Assembly: GCA_038826135.1 (NCBI GenBank)
Contig: JAWBON010000026.1
Coordinates: 1-16,967 of the forward strand
Origin: Candidatus Odinarchaeota archaeon
Lineage (GTDB): Archaea > Asgardarchaeota > Odinarchaeia > Odinarchaeales > Odinarchaeaceae
DNA length: 16,967 bases
Direction: 5' to 3'
Shown here: piece by piece, positions 3 to 11,533 of the stretch
Numbering within the stretch: position 1 is the stretch's first letter
Layout: each line of letters begins with the position of its first letter
Made by a program: the position numbers and the translations under genes
Notes under the pieces: model-generated
What the model saw: the letters and a program-made list of their open reading frames with translations, nothing else
Database searches by the model: none
Told to the model about the DNA's origin: nothing

Positions 3-3000
3 AATAACCTAGATTTGGTGGGAGAATACTATAGACAAACCTACCCGATTGAAGTGGGTGCTATAACCGATTTTAATAATATCTGGAGGCAGGAAGCTCG
101 CAGACTGCCCAGCTATTCTTCCGATAGAGCTCAACTTGTGGAATTTGTTTCAGGGCCTGTCTTCACTAGGATCGCGCTTAACAAAACCACTACATACTAC
201 ACCGGATATCCTACAGTAATATACAGAGTGTGGACTTTTTATCCCAATTACTGGACTGTGGATGTAACTGTGAAGTTCACTTATACTGAAAACTATTTAG
301 TTTACAGCCGAATGTTCCACAATGGTAGTAGAACCTATTACTCTTACGAATATGAGGATAATGTAATAGACGGTGCTACAATTCAGTTAAAATACTATCA
401 GTCAGGTCAAAACTACACCAAAACTGCTACAATTAATGCATCTGGGGGATCTGAAGGTCTACAATCATCTCTCACCATACCGTACTGGTATGCTGTATAT
501 AAATCAACTTTCGCTTATTCCTGCATACCAGCAGCTGGCTCGGAGGTGAACTATTTCTATTATTACGATGAGTACTATAATCAAAACCCATATCATTATG
601 GAGCGGCAGGTTGGGCGTACTATGGTAGCCCAATCAGTACAGCTAAAACTTGGAATGCGCAAATGGTATATACCCCGCACGGAGGTCAGTCGAATTCGTC
701 ATTCGCTGAGACAGACTATCTGAGAATATATAATCCTCTCGCTGTCCAGAAATTTAGTGCTGAATATTATAGGGGTAACCAGGTTTCCTTTCCACTTGTA
801 GATTACTCTAATAATCCAGTCGCAGATGTTAAAGTTCAATTATATAATGTTTCAGGATCCCAGTTTGTCGGCAATTCTACAAGTAATTCGTCGGGTGTAG
901 TTGTGTATACGAAATTGTATGATTACACTTATAATTTAACCGTCTGGTATACTATAGGTGGGGTGGAAAGAAGCATAGCCACTGTTTCAAGCTTATCTTT
1001 CACCGCGAATTATACTAGAACTGCATATTTTAAAATAAATTGTAGCGTAAACCTTGCTAGTATAAAACTTGTGGAAGGTGCTTCAGCTTCCCCATTATAT
1101 AATTACACTATTATAATTAACTCGACAACTAACAGTTTAAACATTACAGGTGTTTCAAACACTTATGGCTGGTATAATATTAGTCTACTTATCACGCCTA
1201 GTTCTCTATATGGTATTACTGTGAAGAACCCGGCTGGCGTTCTTAAAGCAGATAATATTAGTGTTGTTGATATAAAACTGGTAGCGCTTATAATTGTTAA
1301 CGTCACAGAGCCTGACTCGATAACGGAGCTGAACTTTATAGGCTACTCTGTTCAAATATATCCCGGGACGAATCCGGGGGGTAGAAGTACACTGAATCAG
1401 CTACCTGTTAACATATATTGGGGGGACTCTTTAACTTTCACTGTGGAATTTAGAAATCTTACGGGAAATATACCTATAAGTGACGCTTCTAAGAGAAATT
1501 GGTCTATTTACTATGAGAATAATAGCTTAATAGACACAGGTTTAGCCACACACTGGGCTGATGGGAAATATAATTTTACAGTTTCTTCAAGCAATTACGG
1601 TAATAGCTGGGGGCTAACCCTATACTTAAAAATAGAGTTTGGTAGATCTGGATGTGTAAGTCCGCCTATTTTAACTATACCAATATATATTAAGACGTGG
1701 GATACTTCTCTTTCAACTCATCCTGCCGACTATGCTTGGACTTATTGGAGGGAGAATATAACCATTTCAATAGAATACTCTACCAATCTTACAGGTAATC
1801 TACTAGATATATCCGATGGGGTTCTTTTCACAGGTTATATTAGTGGAGTCGGTTATACAGGTTACTTTACAAATCACCCAAGTAATAATGGCACTGTTAT
1901 GTTTTCTCTTAATTTAACAAATCACGGTTTAGGCATATACGCGCTTACCATCACCGCTAGCTTACCACACTATGCTTCTAAGCAGGCGAACTTGCATCTG
2001 TATATTGTAGCGATTCCAACATACGGTTCTTGGTCAAGCACATCTCTCTATATGTATGAGAGCGGCGGAACTAACGTATTGAAAGGAGCTTTCGATGAAA
2101 ATATACCTATAACTTTGGAATGTTACAGTAACGCTACTCAAAGCTTTCCATCAGAGCCTCTGATAGGTGGAATAGCAGTATATGTTTGGGATAAAGGCTC
2201 CGGTCAGCTTAACGAGATCGGCTTAGGCTCCTATAACGGGACCATCGCCTTAACAGGCTTAATACCTGAGGATGAGGGCCTGTACCTTTTAAATGTAATT
2301 ATTTCACTTGATAATAGAACACCAGTAGAGTTCTATATACAGCTGGATGTTATTCGATCATGGAGCACTAAACTTACGCTTGTTGCTAGAAACCCTGCTG
2401 GGAGTGTTCCCTGGGGGAATAATATAACTTTAACATTTAAATATGAATGTACAGAAAACCCGCGTAATGGGTTAACCTTAGACACTGCTAGTTTATCCTT
2501 TGAGTGGCCTACCGGGTACTGGTATTACGTTGATAAAGGAGCGGGTTTGTATGAAGTTAAACTTAATTCTTCAGCTTACAGTATTACAGGTGGAACAAAC
2601 GATATACTGCTTACAAAAACCGCTTCGATATCAAAGCAATATTACGCTCCCTATAATTCAACTGTAGCTATCGGAATAACTAGAATACCTGGAATAGTAA
2701 ATATATATGTTGACGGGTTTAAGAATCCCACCCAGTTCTATATTATCACATTAGAAAACAAGACAGTTGATATCGACTTCAAAGTTTACTACAGTTATAG
2801 TATTTTCAATAATCAACCTATCACCGGAGCTAATTTAACAGCTGTTATTAAATCTAGCATAGATAGTGGATGGAATATTACCACCCCTCTAGTTGAGGTG
2901 CAGCCGGGTTTATACAGGCTTATTATTAATTCAACTCAGATTCAGCCAGTTGTGAATGCGCCTTATAACTTGATTCTAGAAATTTATGCTCAGAAAGATA

Positions 3001-4055
3001 ATTATCTGCAGCAGCTTAGCCCTCAGGAATTCTATTTTGTATTAAGACCAATCCAAGTAGGCTCTACAGTTGCTGAGCTGGAGGGCGCTAAGATGGAGGG
3101 TACTTTTATAAGCGCTAATCAAGGTGACCAGGTTATATTGAGATTTAAGGTTGAAGATTTAGATCACGATTTAGCTTTAACTTCAGCAACAGTTACAGCG
3201 CACCTTAAATCAGGTGCTCAAATACTGAAATCCTATTCTGCTAGACACATAGGTGGAGGGGTTTACGAGTTTAATATTACCACCAGTGACTTAGACGGTT
3301 CATACACGCTCGTCTTAGAAATTAATGCTGGTGATAATTACTCTATATTAACCGCTCAATATACTATTCAAGTTGTGCCACCGTTTCCTTTAATGCTGGT
3401 GCTACTTGTAGCAGCAGCCTCCGCGGTTTCAATACCTGTAGGCTATAAGGGTTTTAAATATTATCAGTGGGCTAAGAAACCAGCTCAGATAAAGAAGATT
3501 CTTACCAGTATAGATTATATAAAGAAGATGAAGAATTTCAAAATAACCTCGCCTATAAGTAGAGAGGATGATATAAATTCTCAGCTGGGTAGAATCTTAT
3601 CAGATCCATTATATGAAGGTTTAAGAGGCTATGTGGCTGAGCCTGTTGTAAAACTCGGCTCGGTAGGCGAATACTCGGCAATATACGCTGAACTCTTTGA
3701 TAAAGTGAATCAGATTCTACCGGGTCTCTCTCCCGCTGAGAAAACCTCTCTTATCGATGAGTTGGTTAACCTTTCACCTGATGAGAGAGAGGTATTGTTA
3801 AAATCTATAGTGGAAGAGCAGAAGCTTAAATCATCCGGTAAAATTGAAGAAGCCGAGTTTATGCCTGTTGAAGAAGTTTCAAAACCGGTTGTGGAATCTC
3901 GGAATAAAATACTGGATGAATTATCGAAAATGGTTGGGGAAGGTCTTATTACAGAGGAGGAGAAGAATATTTTAGCCGTTGAGTTGATGGATCTTCCTAT
4001 AGAAGAGCAGAATAAATTTTTAGAAAGGTTGAAAAGCCGGAGGCCGGATGATTAG
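3..4055 (+). CDS. Giant single-pass (type I) cell-surface glycoprotein, 5'-truncated: beta-rich ectodomain with tandem Ig-like/prealbumin-like modules, one C-proximal TM helix, ~200-aa cytoplasmic tail
   Basis: The frame is open from base 3 (AAT AAC CTA GAT TTG...), so the TTG at 15 is probably not the true start and the gene begins upstream. The ectodomain is rich in Tyr/Thr/Ser/Asn with ~37 N-X-S/T sequons. TM segment FPLMLVLLVAAASAVSIPVGY (~3384-3446) is followed by basic KGFKYYQWAKKP, then a charged helical tail. Confidence 0.9.
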   Translation, partial: NNLDLVGEYYRQTYPIEVGAITDFNNIWRQEARRLPSYSSDRAQLVEFVSGPVFTRIALNKTTTYYTGYPTVIYRVWTFYPNYWTVDVTVKFTYTENYLVYSRMFHNGSRTYYSYEYEDNVIDGATIQLKYYQSGQNYTKTATINASGGSEGLQSSLTIPYWYAVYKSTFAYSCIPAAGSEVNYFYYYDEYYNQNPYHYGAAGWAYYGSPISTAKTWNAQMVYTPHGGQSNSSFAETDYLRIYNPLAVQKFSAEYYRGNQVSFPLVDYSNNPVADVKVQLYNVSGSQFVGNSTSNSSGVVVYTKLYDYTYNLTVWYTIGGVERSIATVSSLSFTANYTRTAYFKINCSVNLASIKLVEGASASPLYNYTIIINSTTNSLNITGVSNTYGWYNISLLITPSSLYGITVKNPAGVLKADNISVVDIKLVALIIVNVTEPDSITELNFIGYSVQIYPGTNPGGRSTLNQLPVNIYWGDSLTFTVEFRNLTGNIPISDASKRNWSIYYENNSLIDTGLATHWADGKYNFTVSSSNYGNSWGLTLYLKIEFGRSGCVSPPILTIPIYIKTWDTSLSTHPADYAWTYWRENITISIEYSTNLTGNLLDISDGVLFTGYISGVGYTGYFTNHPSNNGTVMFSLNLTNHGLGIYALTITASLPHYASKQANLHLYIVAIPTYGSWSSTSLYMYESGGTNVLKGAFDENIPITLECYSNATQSFPSEPLIGGIAVYVWDKGSGQLNEIGLGSYNGTIALTGLIPEDEGLYLLNVIISLDNRTPVEFYIQLDVIRSWSTKLTLVARNPAGSVPWGNNITLTFKYECTENPRNGLTLDTASLSFEWPTGYWYYVDKGAGLYEVKLNSSAYSITGGTNDILLTKTASISKQYYAPYNSTVAIGITRIPGIVNIYVDGFKNPTQFYIITLENKTVDIDFKVYYSYSIFNNQPITGANLTAVIKSSIDSGWNITTPLVEVQPGLYRLIINSTQIQPVVNAPYNLILEIYAQKDNYLQQLSPQEFYFVLRPIQVGSTVAELEGAKMEGTFISANQGDQVILRFKVEDLDHDLALTSATVTAHLKSGAQILKSYSARHIGGGVYEFNITTSDLDGSYTLVLEINAGDNYSILTAQYTIQVVPPFPLMLVLLVAAASAVSIPVGYKGFKYYQWAKKPAQIKKILTSIDYIKKMKNFKITSPISREDDINSQLGRILSDPLYEGLRGYVAEPVVKLGSVGEYSAIYAELFDKVNQILPGLSPAEKTSLIDELVNLSPDEREVLLKSIVEEQKLKSSGKIEEAEFMPVEEVSKPVVESRNKILDELSKMVGEGLITEEEKNILAVELMDLPIEEQNKFLERLKSRRPDD
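3726..4031 (+). repeat. Protein-level duplicated 28-aa helical motif in the cytoplasmic tail (3726-3809 and 3948-4031)
   Basis: LSPAEKTSLIDELVNLSPDEREVLLKSI aligns without gaps to ITEEEKNILAVELMDLPIEEQNKFLERL: 8/28 identical with the same hydrophobic pattern. Confidence 0.7.
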
Positions 4056-4981: not shown

Positions 4982-5653
4982 TCACTCAGAGGGGCTTTCC
5001 TCCCAGCCTAAGGCTTTAAGAGCTTCTAATATGGCTTTTCTTTCAGATTCAAAAGCGGACTTCTCTTCCTCAGATATTTTTTCCATTTTCTTCGAGGCCT
5101 CAACTTTTTCAACGCTAATTGAAACAGGTTCCCGCTCTCCGAAAGCCTCGCTTTCCTCCATTATGTTAACAGGCTGTCGCGGGCCCTCATCCACTGTTGC
5201 TGGTTGTTTTTCAACTTCTACTGTTCCCATCATGGCCTCCGCGATTTCTTCAACTGGTTTAGCTAATCCGCTTAGAATGTTAGCTATATCTTTAGCGTAT
5301 TTTTTAAGAACACCTAGATAATAACCTAATCTATAGCTTTGTCTGCCTGCAGCTACTAGCATCGTGGTTGGGCCGGCTTCAGTGACGATCGTGTAGCCTT
5401 CATCCCCTTTAATTATAACTTCCTTTAACTCGCCTTGTTTAAGTCTTCTAATAGTCATTGAACCGAGGTTAACCATAGCGGCAGCTGCAGCTGAGAATAT
5501 GTCTGCATCCATTTCAGCGCTTACAGAGCAGGCTAGTCTTATTCCCTCTTTTGTAACAACCGCTGTTGCTTCAAGCTCTGTTTTCTGCTCTAATTCTTTA
5601 AGCAGCTTCATTATTTCCTCCCGCTTTTGTTTGATATCGCTGTCCTCGGACAT
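4982..5653 (-). CDS. Roadblock/LC7 (MglB-like) domain protein with a ~96-aa acidic C-terminal extension
   Basis: Roadblock pattern: helix, ATAVVTKEGIRLAC, helix ADIFSAAAAAMVNLG, then EVIIKGDEGYTIVTEAG and LGYYLGVLKKYAKDI. Start placed at ATG 5653 because GGTGA (5663-5659) lies 5 nt upstream; the ORF track uses GTG 5662. Confidence 0.88.
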   Translation of the reverse strand: MSEDSDIKQKREEIMKLLKELEQKTELEATAVVTKEGIRLACSVSAEMDADIFSAAAAAMVNLGSMTIRRLKQGELKEVIIKGDEGYTIVTEAGPTTMLVAAGRQSYRLGYYLGVLKKYAKDIANILSGLAKPVEEIAEAMMGTVEVEKQPATVDEGPRQPVNIMEESEAFGEREPVSISVEKVEASKKMEKISEEEKSAFESERKAILEALKALGWEESPSE

Positions 5654-5808
5654 ATCCTTCACCGTTTGACTTGTACTTTAATACTGGTTAATCTAGTATT
5701 TTAATATATAGATTATATTATGTATCATAACTACATATTAATTATCGATAAAAATAAATACAGTGTTTTTACTATATTCTCCAAAAATATTTTCGGGGTT
5801 CAATCAAA

Positions 5809-8205: not shown

Positions 8206-8577
8206 ATGTTTAATCGAGGTGTTAACTTGTCTGAGGGTGAACCTTCAATTAAGGCTGTTCAAAGGCTTAAGAGTAAGCTGACTAAGGAGAATTTATGGTT
8301 ATATATACTGAGGCTTCTTCAGGAGAAACCAAGATACGGTTACGAGATCCGTTCTGAGATAAAAAAGAGATTCAACTTCTCCCCAGCTATGGTAACAGGG
8401 TATGTTATAATTTATAAATTGAAGAGAGATAATTTAGTGGAGGAGAGAATAGATAAGTCTCAATCAAACCGTCCTGATAGAAAATATTATTTTATAACTG
8501 ATAAAGGATTATCTGCTTTAAAAGAAGCTAAAACATTTTTAGAGGAACTTATGGGAAAAATATTCGATTTAACTTAA
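8206..8577 (+). CDS. PadR-family winged-helix transcriptional regulator
   Basis: LWLYILRLLQEKPRYGYEI, YVIIYKLKRDNLV and wing RKYYFITDKG. Start is either ATG 8206 or SD-led TTG 8227. Confidence 0.92.
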   Translation: MFNRGVNLSEGEPSIKAVQRLKSKLTKENLWLYILRLLQEKPRYGYEIRSEIKKRFNFSPAMVTGYVIIYKLKRDNLVEERIDKSQSNRPDRKYYFITDKGLSALKEAKTFLEELMGKIFDLT

Positions 8578-8598: not shown

Positions 8599-9531
8599 TT
8601 GGCATATTACGATCTTTGTATAATAGGCGGCGGACCAGCGGGTATGACTGCGGCAATATACGCTGCCAGAAGCGGGCTTTCAACTATTTTAATAGAGGCG
8701 ATGGCTTTAGGAGGAGCTATGGCCACCGCCCCCGTAATAGAGAATTACCCTGGATGGGAGAGTATATCAGGTCTTGAACTAGCTCAGATCATGAGAAAAC
8801 AGGTTATTAAGGCTGGTGCTGAAATAAGAGAAATGGAGAAGGTTGTTAAAGTTAATCTTCAAGGTGATGTTAAAACCATTAGCACAGATATGGGTGAATA
8901 CACTTGTAGTAGCGTTATAATCGCCACAGGTGGGGAAAGGAAGCGTTTAGGCGCTAAAGGTGAAAATGAATTTTACGGTAAAGGAGTATCTTACTGCGCT
9001 GTTTGCGACGGCGCCTTATACAAGGATAGAAACGTTATTGTTGTAGGGGGCGGTAACTGCGCTGTTTCAGCTGCCTTATACTTAAAGAATATCGCTCGCA
9101 ATGTAACTCTTATACATAGAAGGGATGAGCTGAGATGTGAAAACATTCTTAGAAATAGGTTACTGGATTGTGGTGTTAAATTGATTTGGAACAGTGTTGT
9201 AAGAGAGGTTAAAGGTGATAAAACAGTTAAAACTATTGTAGTTGAAAACGTGAAAAATAGAAGCCTCTTTGAACTTCCGGTTGACGGTTTATTTATAGAA
9301 ATAGGGATAGTGCCTAACAGCTCATTATTCGCATATGCTGGTGTTAAGGTTGATGAAGCAGGATATATAATAGTTGACAAGGATATGAAAACCAATATTC
9401 CAGGTGTGTTCGCAGCCGGTGATGTGACAGGGGGGGTTGAGCAGATATCGGTGGCTGTCGGTAAAGGTTCAACAGCCTATAATTCCGCATACGAATATAT
9501 CCGAAACTTAACGGGTAAATGTGAAATCTAA
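8599..9531 (+). CDS. trxB: Thioredoxin-disulfide reductase (low-MW NADPH-type)
   Basis: FAD motif IIGGGPAGMTAAIYAAR, redox motif GVSYCAVCDG, VVGGGN, HRRDELR NADPH motif, TNIPGVFAAGD. TTG start with GGAGG SD at 8587-8591. Confidence 0.95.
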   Translation: MAYYDLCIIGGGPAGMTAAIYAARSGLSTILIEAMALGGAMATAPVIENYPGWESISGLELAQIMRKQVIKAGAEIREMEKVVKVNLQGDVKTISTDMGEYTCSSVIIATGGERKRLGAKGENEFYGKGVSYCAVCDGALYKDRNVIVVGGGNCAVSAALYLKNIARNVTLIHRRDELRCENILRNRLLDCGVKLIWNSVVREVKGDKTVKTIVVENVKNRSLFELPVDGLFIEIGIVPNSSLFAYAGVKVDEAGYIIVDKDMKTNIPGVFAAGDVTGGVEQISVAVGKGSTAYNSAYEYIRNLTGKCEI

Positions 9532-9558: not shown

Positions 9559-10914
9559 TTGTTGAAATTGGAAGAGTGTAACTTGTATAAATCACTAGAT
9601 GCGTCAAAAACGGTTTCAAAAAAGATTTTAGAAAAAAAGTTAAGTGGAGACATAGCGCTGGTAACATATGATAAAAACATAGTCTATAAATCTGAGAATA
9701 TTCTCTTAACCTGCAGTCAAATACTAGCATATCTTGCAGAGGAGGAGGTGCTTAAAAATAATAGAATTCTACTATTGTTAAATTCTAGCGGTGATGATAA
9801 AACACTGTTTGAAATGTTAAACCAGCTTACACAACTATTCGAAAAAGAAGGGAAGAAATCATCAGTAATCGTTTTCGGGGAGCCGACGCAACCCCAGTAT
9901 ATTAACCAATCTTATAAACATATTAAAATAGACTTGGATTGGTTAGGGGTAAACCCCGGTTTTTTAACCGAGATAGTCCGCGAGACATCTATTAAAAAAA
10001 CAGATTTCGATTTAAAAAAATTATGCCATAATAAGACACTCGCATCCCTAGATGAGTTAAGCTCGATTCTAATAAAGAATTTAGGCCCCCCGTCTTTTAT
10101 TGAAGATCTCTCTTTAAAAGTAGAGAAAGGAAAGAGCGCTGTCAAAATGGATGAGGCGGGGGCGATAGCCGCCGGGGTTGGCAGCTTTATCATAGCCAGC
10201 AGCCCGACTCTGCTTCTTCTAAAAGGTATAAAGTACATCAGCGGCTTATATAATATATTCAAGCATAGGCATGATGAGAATAACAAGAAATTTTTGGAAA
10301 AATGGGCTCGCGAAGTCTCTGAAGGTTACTCTAAGGTTAAGCTCGCTAAATATTTTGAGGCAGATGCTTCTAAACCTATTATAAAAATGCTGGAAGCGAA
10401 TAATATCACGATTCTGGTTAATTTAACAGTTAACACAATATATGAATTATTTTATCCAATACTTCTTTATAATATTATGAACTTACTAGAGCTTAAAGAA
10501 TTAAAATTAGACTATTTGTTTTTCGACAACCTATCGTATTTCGCTAAAACTGAATTTTTCACTCGATTTTTCAACGAGAAACTCATTCATAAGGCTAAAA
10601 GATTTAATTTAATTGTAAGCTTGTCAACAAAGGATCAGGTTAACGCTAAGAACTTAGAGGATATAATAAAATATTTTTCCGCACGGTCTGTAATATACTT
10701 TGACATCTCCTCGGACTTTTTAAATATATTGATGGGTGATCATCCTTTAAGTGAGATGGCTCAAATCCTTCAAAGCTTCGCGGAGATGAAGAAACTAAAA
10801 GACGAGCAGATACTCACATTCGTCTATTTTAACAGTTCTCTAACCCCAAGCTGGCAGATTATTAAAATCCCGTTAAAGTTAACTCATAAATTCAAATTGC
10901 TAATGAGAAAATAA
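9559..10914 (+). CDS. Hypothetical protein; probable degenerate HerA/FtsK/VirB4/VirD4-superfamily P-loop ATPase
   Basis: 451-aa ORF with ILLLL-NSSGDDKT (Walker A-like), VIVFGEP, ITILVNL, YLFFDN (Walker B-like) and AKRFNLIVSLSTK, in the canonical order. The CDS is secure; the fold call is inference. Confidence 0.65.
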   Translation: MLKLEECNLYKSLDASKTVSKKILEKKLSGDIALVTYDKNIVYKSENILLTCSQILAYLAEEEVLKNNRILLLLNSSGDDKTLFEMLNQLTQLFEKEGKKSSVIVFGEPTQPQYINQSYKHIKIDLDWLGVNPGFLTEIVRETSIKKTDFDLKKLCHNKTLASLDELSSILIKNLGPPSFIEDLSLKVEKGKSAVKMDEAGAIAAGVGSFIIASSPTLLLLKGIKYISGLYNIFKHRHDENNKKFLEKWAREVSEGYSKVKLAKYFEADASKPIIKMLEANNITILVNLTVNTIYELFYPILLYNIMNLLELKELKLDYLFFDNLSYFAKTEFFTRFFNEKLIHKAKRFNLIVSLSTKDQVNAKNLEDIIKYFSARSVIYFDISSDFLNILMGDHPLSEMAQILQSFAEMKKLKDEQILTFVYFNSSLTPSWQIIKIPLKLTHKFKLLMRK

Positions 10915-10963: not shown

Positions 10964-11533
10964 CTATACTTCATCTAAATCACTGTATTTTCGCTCTAAC
11001 TCCTCCAGTTTATCTTCTAAAATAAGTTCCAGCATGTCATCTAGTAGGGTTAGCCCCTTCTTATCTGGCTGTATTAGCTTCTCGAAATCTTCACCTCTCT
11101 CATCAACGCTTTCAAGTACTTTTCTAAGGTTTTCATAAACGTTAAACAATGGAATTATTCTCTGCTGTAATATGTTGCTCTCCCTTTTAAACGAGTTTAG
11201 AAATCTCTCAACTTCGGGTATTATGAAAATTCTTATCCGTTCTTTTAATTCTTTCACGTTCTCAGAGTCGTTGATAGTGGTGTTAACATGCCAGAGCAGT
11301 GACCGCATCGCTGTTAAAACTAAAAGCTTCTCCGTAAATAATTTTTTAAACTGGATCATCAATTCATCAATTTTCTTCTGAGCGTTATCTATATCTTTAA
11401 TTTTATCTTTCAAATCATCTCCTGTAATAAGATCAGGGTATTTATCGAAAACAGTGCTCCGAATCTTAATTAAAAACTTATTAAATCTTCTAAGCGCCTC
11501 TTTATACGCGTTTACATCATCTTTACCAGACAT
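10964..11533 (-). CDS. Hypothetical all-alpha/coiled-coil protein (189 aa)
   Basis: Fills the gap between orf451 and mch, ATG start, helical K/E/L/I-rich composition with few Gly/Pro. No family motif recognised. Confidence 0.8.
   Translation of the reverse strand: MSGKDDVNAYKEALRRFNKFLIKIRSTVFDKYPDLITGDDLKDKIKDIDNAQKKIDELMIQFKKLFTEKLLVLTAMRSLLWHVNTTINDSENVKELKERIRIFIIPEVERFLNSFKRESNILQQRIIPLFNVYENLRKVLESVDERGEDFEKLIQPDKKGLTLLDDMLELILEDKLEELERKYSDLDEV

Follow-up and report, generated by a model that had tools for sequence, protein, structure and literature searches.

ATPases of the HerA/FtsK/VirB4/VirD4 clade are the closest described counterparts of a 451-amino-acid (aa) protein encoded by an Asgard archaeon. 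The gene lies in a stretch of 16,967 nucleotides (nt), here called the window, that is contig JAWBON010000026.1 of Candidatus Odinarchaeota archaeon assembly GCA_038826135.1. The genome is approximately 1.26 Mb in size and 93% complete, and the samples came from hot springs. The protein represents a conserved, constrained family with the HerA/VirB4 fold and without the residues for canonical ATP binding or hydrolysis. Three groups of ATPases serve for comparison. (i) The VirB4/TrwK ATPase domain of type IV secretion systems (T4SSs; PDB 4ag5, 7o42) is about 10% identical to the Odin protein, which has no Pfam AAA_10 or DUF87 match. Unlike VirB4/TrwK, the protein lacks Walker A and the catalytic Glu, its insertion has conserved motifs of its own, and its gene occupies a housekeeping locus with no VirB3-like or other T4SS genes nearby. 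(ii) In contrast to archaeal and bacterial HerA (PDB 4d2i, 7f6d, 7wrx) and the HerA proteins of defence systems (Sir2-HerA, TdpA, DndH-C), it has no N-terminal HAS barrel and, within the window, no NurA, Mre11, Rad50, Sir2 or nuclease partner. Its catalytic motifs are lost across the family, whereas the genome keeps a separate, bona fide HerA on contig 74, adjoining the gene for an Mre11-like phosphoesterase. (iii) The TrwB/VirD4 coupling proteins (PDB 1e9r, 1gki; also Cagbeta, 8dol, and DotL, 7ovb) differ by their N-terminal transmembrane anchor, their Walker A motif and their relaxosome or T4SS context. Among RecA-fold ring subunits known to have little or no catalytic activity, Elp4/5/6 (PDB 4a8j) and the archaellum protein FlaH (4wia, 4yds) have no sequence relation to the protein, and their structural scores, over about 195 residues, are clearly below those of the HerA/VirB4 clade; FlaH moreover retains Walker A.

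The gene and the elements of its product are as follows.
9559..10914, + strand: gene for the 451-aa HerA/VirB4-fold protein without a P-loop (intact open reading frame, homologues, AlphaFold2 model, fold matches, substitution rates)
9766..9804, + strand: strand beta1, ILLLLN (70-75), with the next loop, SSGDDKT (76-82), where Walker A would lie (model, alignment columns, spacing)
9859..9879, + strand: strand beta2, SSVIVFG (101-107), ending in F106-G107 (modelled strand 101-106; F in 24 and G in 25 of 26 members)
9880..10404, + strand: insertion that separates beta2 from beta3 (108-282), helical and about 175 residues long (modelled helices 126-262; conserved columns)
10156..10263, + strand: hydrophobic helix-Pro-helix hairpin followed by a basic amphipathic helix (200-235) (hydropathy; low-confidence part of the model)
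10405..10422, + strand: strand beta3, ITILVN (283-288), followed by conserved T290 and T293 (model; hhalign to the DUF87 strand ALVINLK; columns)
10513..10530, + strand: Walker B remnant YLFFDN (319-324) (modelled strand 319-322; both hhalign runs; columns)
10591..10632, + strand: sensor-1-type strand KAKRFNLIVSLSTK (345-358) (modelled strand 350-356; hhalign to EGRKF..TQ and RH.G..FITNQ; columns)
10687..10704, + strand: strand SVIYFD (377-382) (modelled strand 377-380; F381 in 23 of 26, D382 in 22 and N in four; hhalign to NxFLFNF)

An earlier reading of the window from its letters and translated reading frames, referred to here as the sequence-only reading, had proposed a catalytically dead ATPase of this clade. 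The gene it placed here is real, all the segments it quoted are present in the order it gave, and it located NSSGDDKT (9781-9804) and YLFFDN exactly; the sensor segment is present too, starting at 10591 rather than at 10594. The open reading frame opens with TTG at 9559; translation could equally well begin at either of the in-frame TTG codons at 9562 and 9568.

The fold was predicted with AlphaFold2 from an alignment of 26 family members, which also underlies the column counts given here, and the model was matched by VIA-align against 48,161 PDB representatives. The model has a mean predicted local distance difference test (pLDDT) score of 85.4 and a predicted template-modelling score of 0.87, with low confidence confined to residues 191-211 (pLDDT is 39-64 across 191-225). 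It predicts a RecA-like alpha/beta core with the strand order of the clade and a helical insertion between beta2 and beta3: a strand at 70-75, a loop at 76-80, a helix at 81-96, a strand at 101-106 and a helical region at 126-262, followed by a strand at 283-288, a helix at 294-312 and strands at 319-322, 350-356 and 377-380. This is the order expected of the HerA/VirB4 clade, namely Walker A strand, beta2, helical insert, beta3, Walker B and sensor strand. Members of that clade among the PDB representatives are matched by the model, in agreement with the fold proposed from sequence, and T4SS and defence ATPases are among the best structural matches. A two-copy prediction from the same alignment scored 0.01 against a mark of 0.42, a value that says nothing for or against self-association.

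The canonical nucleotide-binding and hydrolysis residues are missing throughout the family. Position 75 is N in 17 members and D in nine, with no other residue. The loop after it (76-82) varies, has insertions and deletions and holds no conserved Gly or Lys, and no member has a Walker A motif, GxxxxGK[ST]; K81-T82, which mimics GK[ST], is confined to close Odin relatives of the window protein. At Walker B, D323 is kept in 20 members, and the next position is N (11), S (six), G (three) or D (two) and never E. On the sensor strand T357 is kept in 22, the residue after it is K, D, G or Y and not Q or N, and the basic segment is unconserved. Position 376, near the hhalign register of a basic residue (arginine finger context), is E or D in 19 members and R in five. 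In an alignment of active DUF87 proteins, G150, K152, G155, K156, S157, E354-E355, R371/R373/H374 and T383-N384 are invariant. Walker A, the catalytic Glu and the sensor Gln/Asn are thus gone across the family, and the Walker B Asp and the sensor Thr survive in most members.

These assignments draw on two independent profile alignments and on motif spacing. When the family was compared by hhalign with four active DUF87/HerA sequences the probability was 0.7%, and with 33 it was 1.4%; neither value is significant. In both runs, nevertheless, ITILVN pairs with beta3, LDYLFFDN with Walker B, FNLIVSLST with the ..TQ/..TN strand and VIYFD with the strand that follows. Forced global mode produced a degenerate alignment. 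The N-terminal third was paired, again without significance, with the wrong beta-alpha-beta unit; that alignment is meaningless, and Walker A is therefore not mappable by sequence. Spacing was compared with the genome's active 469-aa DUF87 protein: from the Walker A position to beta2 there are 31 residues against 28, from beta3 to Walker B 36 against about 31, and from Walker B to the sensor Thr 34 against 29. The Walker B and sensor-strand assignments, backed by both hhalign registers, are well supported. The P-loop position is supported by modelled topology and spacing alone. The segments quoted in the sequence-only reading would accordingly lie on the P-loop and Walker B strands, as it had proposed.

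The surviving polar residues raise the question of function at the old site. The Walker B Asp of ASCE ATPases normally coordinates Mg2+. D323 is that Asp, and together with N/D75, T290, T357 and D382 it is conserved despite loss of the P-loop, so that this set might form a non-canonical site by which the protein still acts as an NTPase or as a sensor of a nucleotide or other ligand. The loop after beta1, however, varies in sequence and length without a conserved Gly or Lys, no member has a Glu or other general base after the Asp, and models of P-loop families find no match. Such a site is accordingly judged quite improbable. The protein presumably no longer binds or hydrolyses ATP and would act as a scaffold or adaptor.

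The family is conserved, restricted to part of the Asgard archaea, and new to Pfam, NCBIfam and the literature found. A word-indexed search recovered five relatives; exhaustive phmmer recovered 29 among 1.84 billion cluster representatives, 23 of them at E <= 1e-10 and most 410-530 aa long. The nearest named homologue, at 63% identity, is a hypothetical protein of Candidatus Odinarchaeum yellowstonii, and the family has named members in Odinarchaeia, Ranarchaeia, Thorarchaeota and Baldrarchaeota. A 26-member profile matches in 88 of 400 Asgard genomes, where most of the matching frames are full-length and uninterrupted by stops; the label 'orphan' given from the sequence does not hold. The family is present in all three other genomes of the window's genus and in nearly all genomes of one large family, where the proteins are similar to that of the named Thorarchaeota member; in three other Asgard families, which include the two largest of the rest, the profile search found it in none of 135, 31 and 19 genomes. 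Single in-frame stops occur in two frames (TAA in G005:C57:4580-5875 and TGA in G284:C227:8685-9938), for which sequencing error, a pseudogene or recoding could account. The protein has no match in Pfam at E <= 0.1 or in NCBIfam, and a PDB profile search returned nothing relevant. Six members compared with DUF87, HerA_C, AAA_10, TrwB_AAD_bind, P-loop_TraG and FtsK_SpoIIIE gave no match at E <= 10; two of these, DUF87 and TrwB_AAD_bind, are the families that the sequence-only reading had named for a check. Literature searches found no description of the family.

Selection and location bear on whether the gene is a relic. In a comparison with a 92%-identical relative that covered 447 codons, the ratio of non-synonymous to synonymous substitution rates is 0.144, effectively equal to the 0.151 of a thioredoxin reductase fragment on the same contig, and the protein is therefore under ordinary purifying selection. 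Family-wide loss of catalytic residues thus goes together with selection on the protein, as in a pseudo-enzyme. T4SS and defence ATPases rank among the best structural matches, which would suit a functionless, decayed remnant of a mobile element, of a conjugation or T4SS-like system, or of a defence system (VirB4, VirD4, DndH or Sir2-HerA type). Yet the gene occurs once, at an unchanged housekeeping locus, in each of the three other genomes of the genus and in the 92%-identical relative, purifying selection acts on it, and its GC content is similar to that of the flanking sequence. The PADLOC (defence) and PHROG (phage) libraries gave no meaningful match, and Pfam and NCBIfam scans of the window found no T4SS, nuclease or integrase genes nearby, which bears out the housekeeping surroundings described from the sequence. 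Such a remnant is very improbable.

A different possibility, put forward in the sequence-only reading, is a non-catalytic subunit or regulator in mixed rings with active HerA-type ATPases, with which the protein shares its fold. The genome encodes two active DUF87 proteins, HerA and the 469-aa protein on contig 18. The Ran locus has HerA-NurA immediately downstream, in convergent orientation, and in locus L006 a HerA_C protein is encoded 4 kb away. The 469-aa protein (L009 1066-2475, G000 contig 18) has intact Walker motifs and belongs to a family widespread in Asgard archaea, Thermoproteota and Nitrososphaerota. Against mixed rings stand the lack of HerA linkage in the Odin and Thor loci examined, the patchy distribution of the family (88 of 400 genomes), and the Baldr-type genomes, which pair the protein with a second P-loop-less paralogue rather than with an active ATPase. 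This divergent paralogue lies beside the first in convergent orientation; both lack Walker A, and the two do not form an active/inactive pair. They may form a hetero-oligomer. The pairs (L004 8001-10595, L040 3299-5905, L041 408-3020) have about 20% identity between paralogues, and the SP..KG.KY and EW motifs are missing from the second paralogue as well. On grounds of linkage and distribution, mixed rings with active HerA are disfavoured and considered unlikely.

Conservation is concentrated in the helical insertion. The most conserved motifs, IKIDLDWL (122-129), GPPS (176-179), SP..KG.KY (215-226) and EW with W249, all sit there; P177, P178, P216 (in S/N-P216) and W249 are invariant, and G223 within KG.KY is near-invariant. 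The only residues of this rank outside the insertion are F106-G107 at the end of beta2. The hairpin in it has a Kyte-Doolittle mean of 1.87 over 19 residues and no charged residue, and this region is the protein-wide maximum in most members. Within the Odin clade it resembles a transmembrane segment (1.7-1.9 over 19 residues, uncharged in most members). A hairpin that is both hydrophobic and the least confidently modelled element is what would be expected of a part that packs on a partner, a neighbouring subunit or the membrane.

The neighbourhood was compared across Asgard genomes. Upstream of the gene in the window lie two others.
8206..8577, + strand: PadR-family regulator gene, 5' of the thioredoxin reductase gene (PF03551)
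8599..9531, + strand: thioredoxin reductase (TrxR) gene, 27 nt 5' of the gene for the 451-aa protein (TIGR01292, 359 bits, above cut-off)
The order in the window, among housekeeping genes, is ribosomal protein S26e, TrmY, PadR, TrxR and then the family gene, with a 189-aa reading frame and Mch, followed by Fae-Hps, on the opposite strand past it. The closed Candidatus Odinarchaeum yellowstonii chromosome has the same order. This TrxR is probably a housekeeping enzyme, since it is the sole copy in the genome above the TIGR01292 cut-off. In Odin genomes TrxR lies directly 5' of the family gene with spacers of 19-27 nt, as it does in the 92%-identical relative. Many genera of Thor and a separate family, G310, share a five-gene block encoding a 288-aa P-loop protein, TrxR, a PF00432 (Prenyltrans) alpha/alpha-toroid protein, the family member and a 139-aa protein; the Ran locus and L006 have TrxR, alpha/alpha-toroid and family gene. 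TrxR and the family gene are thus neighbours in at least four lineages. Because the flanks differ between lineages, the core of TrxR and family gene is more than inherited gene order. PadR recurs as well, in four contexts: directly 5' of the family gene in a distant Odinarchaeia genome (L005), in the order PadR-TrxR-family gene in the Odin loci L007 and L053, and 0.4-5 kb away in the Baldr-type locus L004 and in L006. The alpha/alpha-toroid neighbours have an N-terminal signal or anchor segment and a C-terminal transmembrane segment, and these features suggest a location at the cell surface.

Further details concern these neighbours. The Thor block (L001 4742-10075, also L044-L052) has a thermosome gene just 5' in L001; its 288-aa protein has an N-terminal P-loop with a weak AAA_26/MobB hit, and its 139-aa protein a weak PRK08577 hit. 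Protein, profile and tblastn searches of the 93%-complete window genome found no homologue of the Prenyltrans, 288-aa or 139-aa proteins. The 189-aa frame (10964-11533, - strand), downstream of Mch and co-directional with it, has no Pfam or NCBIfam match and is kept in place at 74% identity in Odin LCB_4, 77% in another genome of the genus and 35% in a distant Odinarchaeia genome. Among the small genes downstream of the family gene, those of Odin (189 aa), Thor (139 aa) and L005 (229 aa) are not related to one another. Elsewhere in the window, a 226-aa Roadblock/LC7 protein (4982-5662, - strand) has PF03259 at residues 19-103 and a long C-terminal extension, and Odin LCB_4 has the same at the same place. 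A very large reading frame at 3-4055 (+ strand), of at least 1350 aa, is open at the 5' end of the window; its Odin LCB_4 counterpart encodes 1552 aa and has no recorded Pfam hit. Two runs labelled metatranscriptomic, probably of DNA, gave contigs of 151-194 nt, none bridging the junction between TrxR and the family gene.

Taken with the fold, these observations support the view of a non-catalytic HerA/VirB4-type protein advanced in the sequence-only reading. The family probably descends from the HerA/FtsK/VirB4/VirD4 clade, lost its nucleotide-hydrolysis motifs before its lineages, which span several Asgard classes, diverged, and serves as a non-catalytic scaffold or adaptor that works through its insertion. 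Elp4/5/6 and the Rad51 paralogues exemplify pseudo-enzymes of ring-ATPase origin, which often prove to be organisers of larger machines. The old ATPase core would here be the frame and the family-specific insertion the working surface. In the monomer model the hairpin and the basic amphipathic helix are unpacked, and they most likely form the site at which the protein docks, whether on a partner, an adjacent subunit or the membrane. The PadR and TrxR context recurs, joined in Thor, Ran and others by a membrane-anchored alpha/alpha-toroid protein, and it would suit a redox or envelope stress module better than DNA transfer or repair. The context thus suggests a role at or near the membrane in a PadR-linked module of this kind, which is the weakest step of the argument.

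Several points weigh against this interpretation. Sequence homology to HerA/VirB4 is undetectable at hhalign probabilities of 0.7-1.4%, and descent from the clade is therefore read from the fold alone; convergence on a common RecA-like core is, strictly, conceivable. The P-loop position comes from topology and spacing in the model, not from residue-level superposition, and the conserved polar set around D323 could bind a ligand or metal. The hairpin carries one or more charged residues and is only mildly hydrophobic in several other members, and membrane insertion is therefore not general. The alpha/alpha-toroid partner is neither necessary, as Odin genomes have no detectable homologue, nor specific, as its family occurs in 274 of 400 genomes, including families without the protein; this distribution and the absence from Odin rule out strict co-occurrence of the two. 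Finally, the family has no conserved cysteine and its isoelectric point ranges from 4.8 to 9.5, which leaves the link to TrxR unexplained. A role as TrxR substrate or as nucleic-acid binder is thus not obvious. The former was rejected on the lack of a conserved Cys, several members having no Cys at all, and a uniformly basic DNA-binding protein on the range of isoelectric points.

A more specific proposal is an Asgard-specific, membrane-proximal adaptor. The hairpin and basic helix would dock at the membrane or on the short cytoplasmic tail of the toroid protein and would couple the cytoplasmic thioredoxin system, under PadR control, to an envelope protein. In this specific form the proposal is a long shot. 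The practical value of the finding is modest pending a partner or phenotype, and the linkage to TrxR and PadR and the motifs of the insertion are concrete starting points. Compact and soluble-looking, the family is a branch of the HerA/VirB4 clade that probably lost its P-loop before several Asgard classes separated. If the adaptor proposal is true, the branch would belong to a redox or envelope-stress module, not described before, of the archaea related to eukaryotes.
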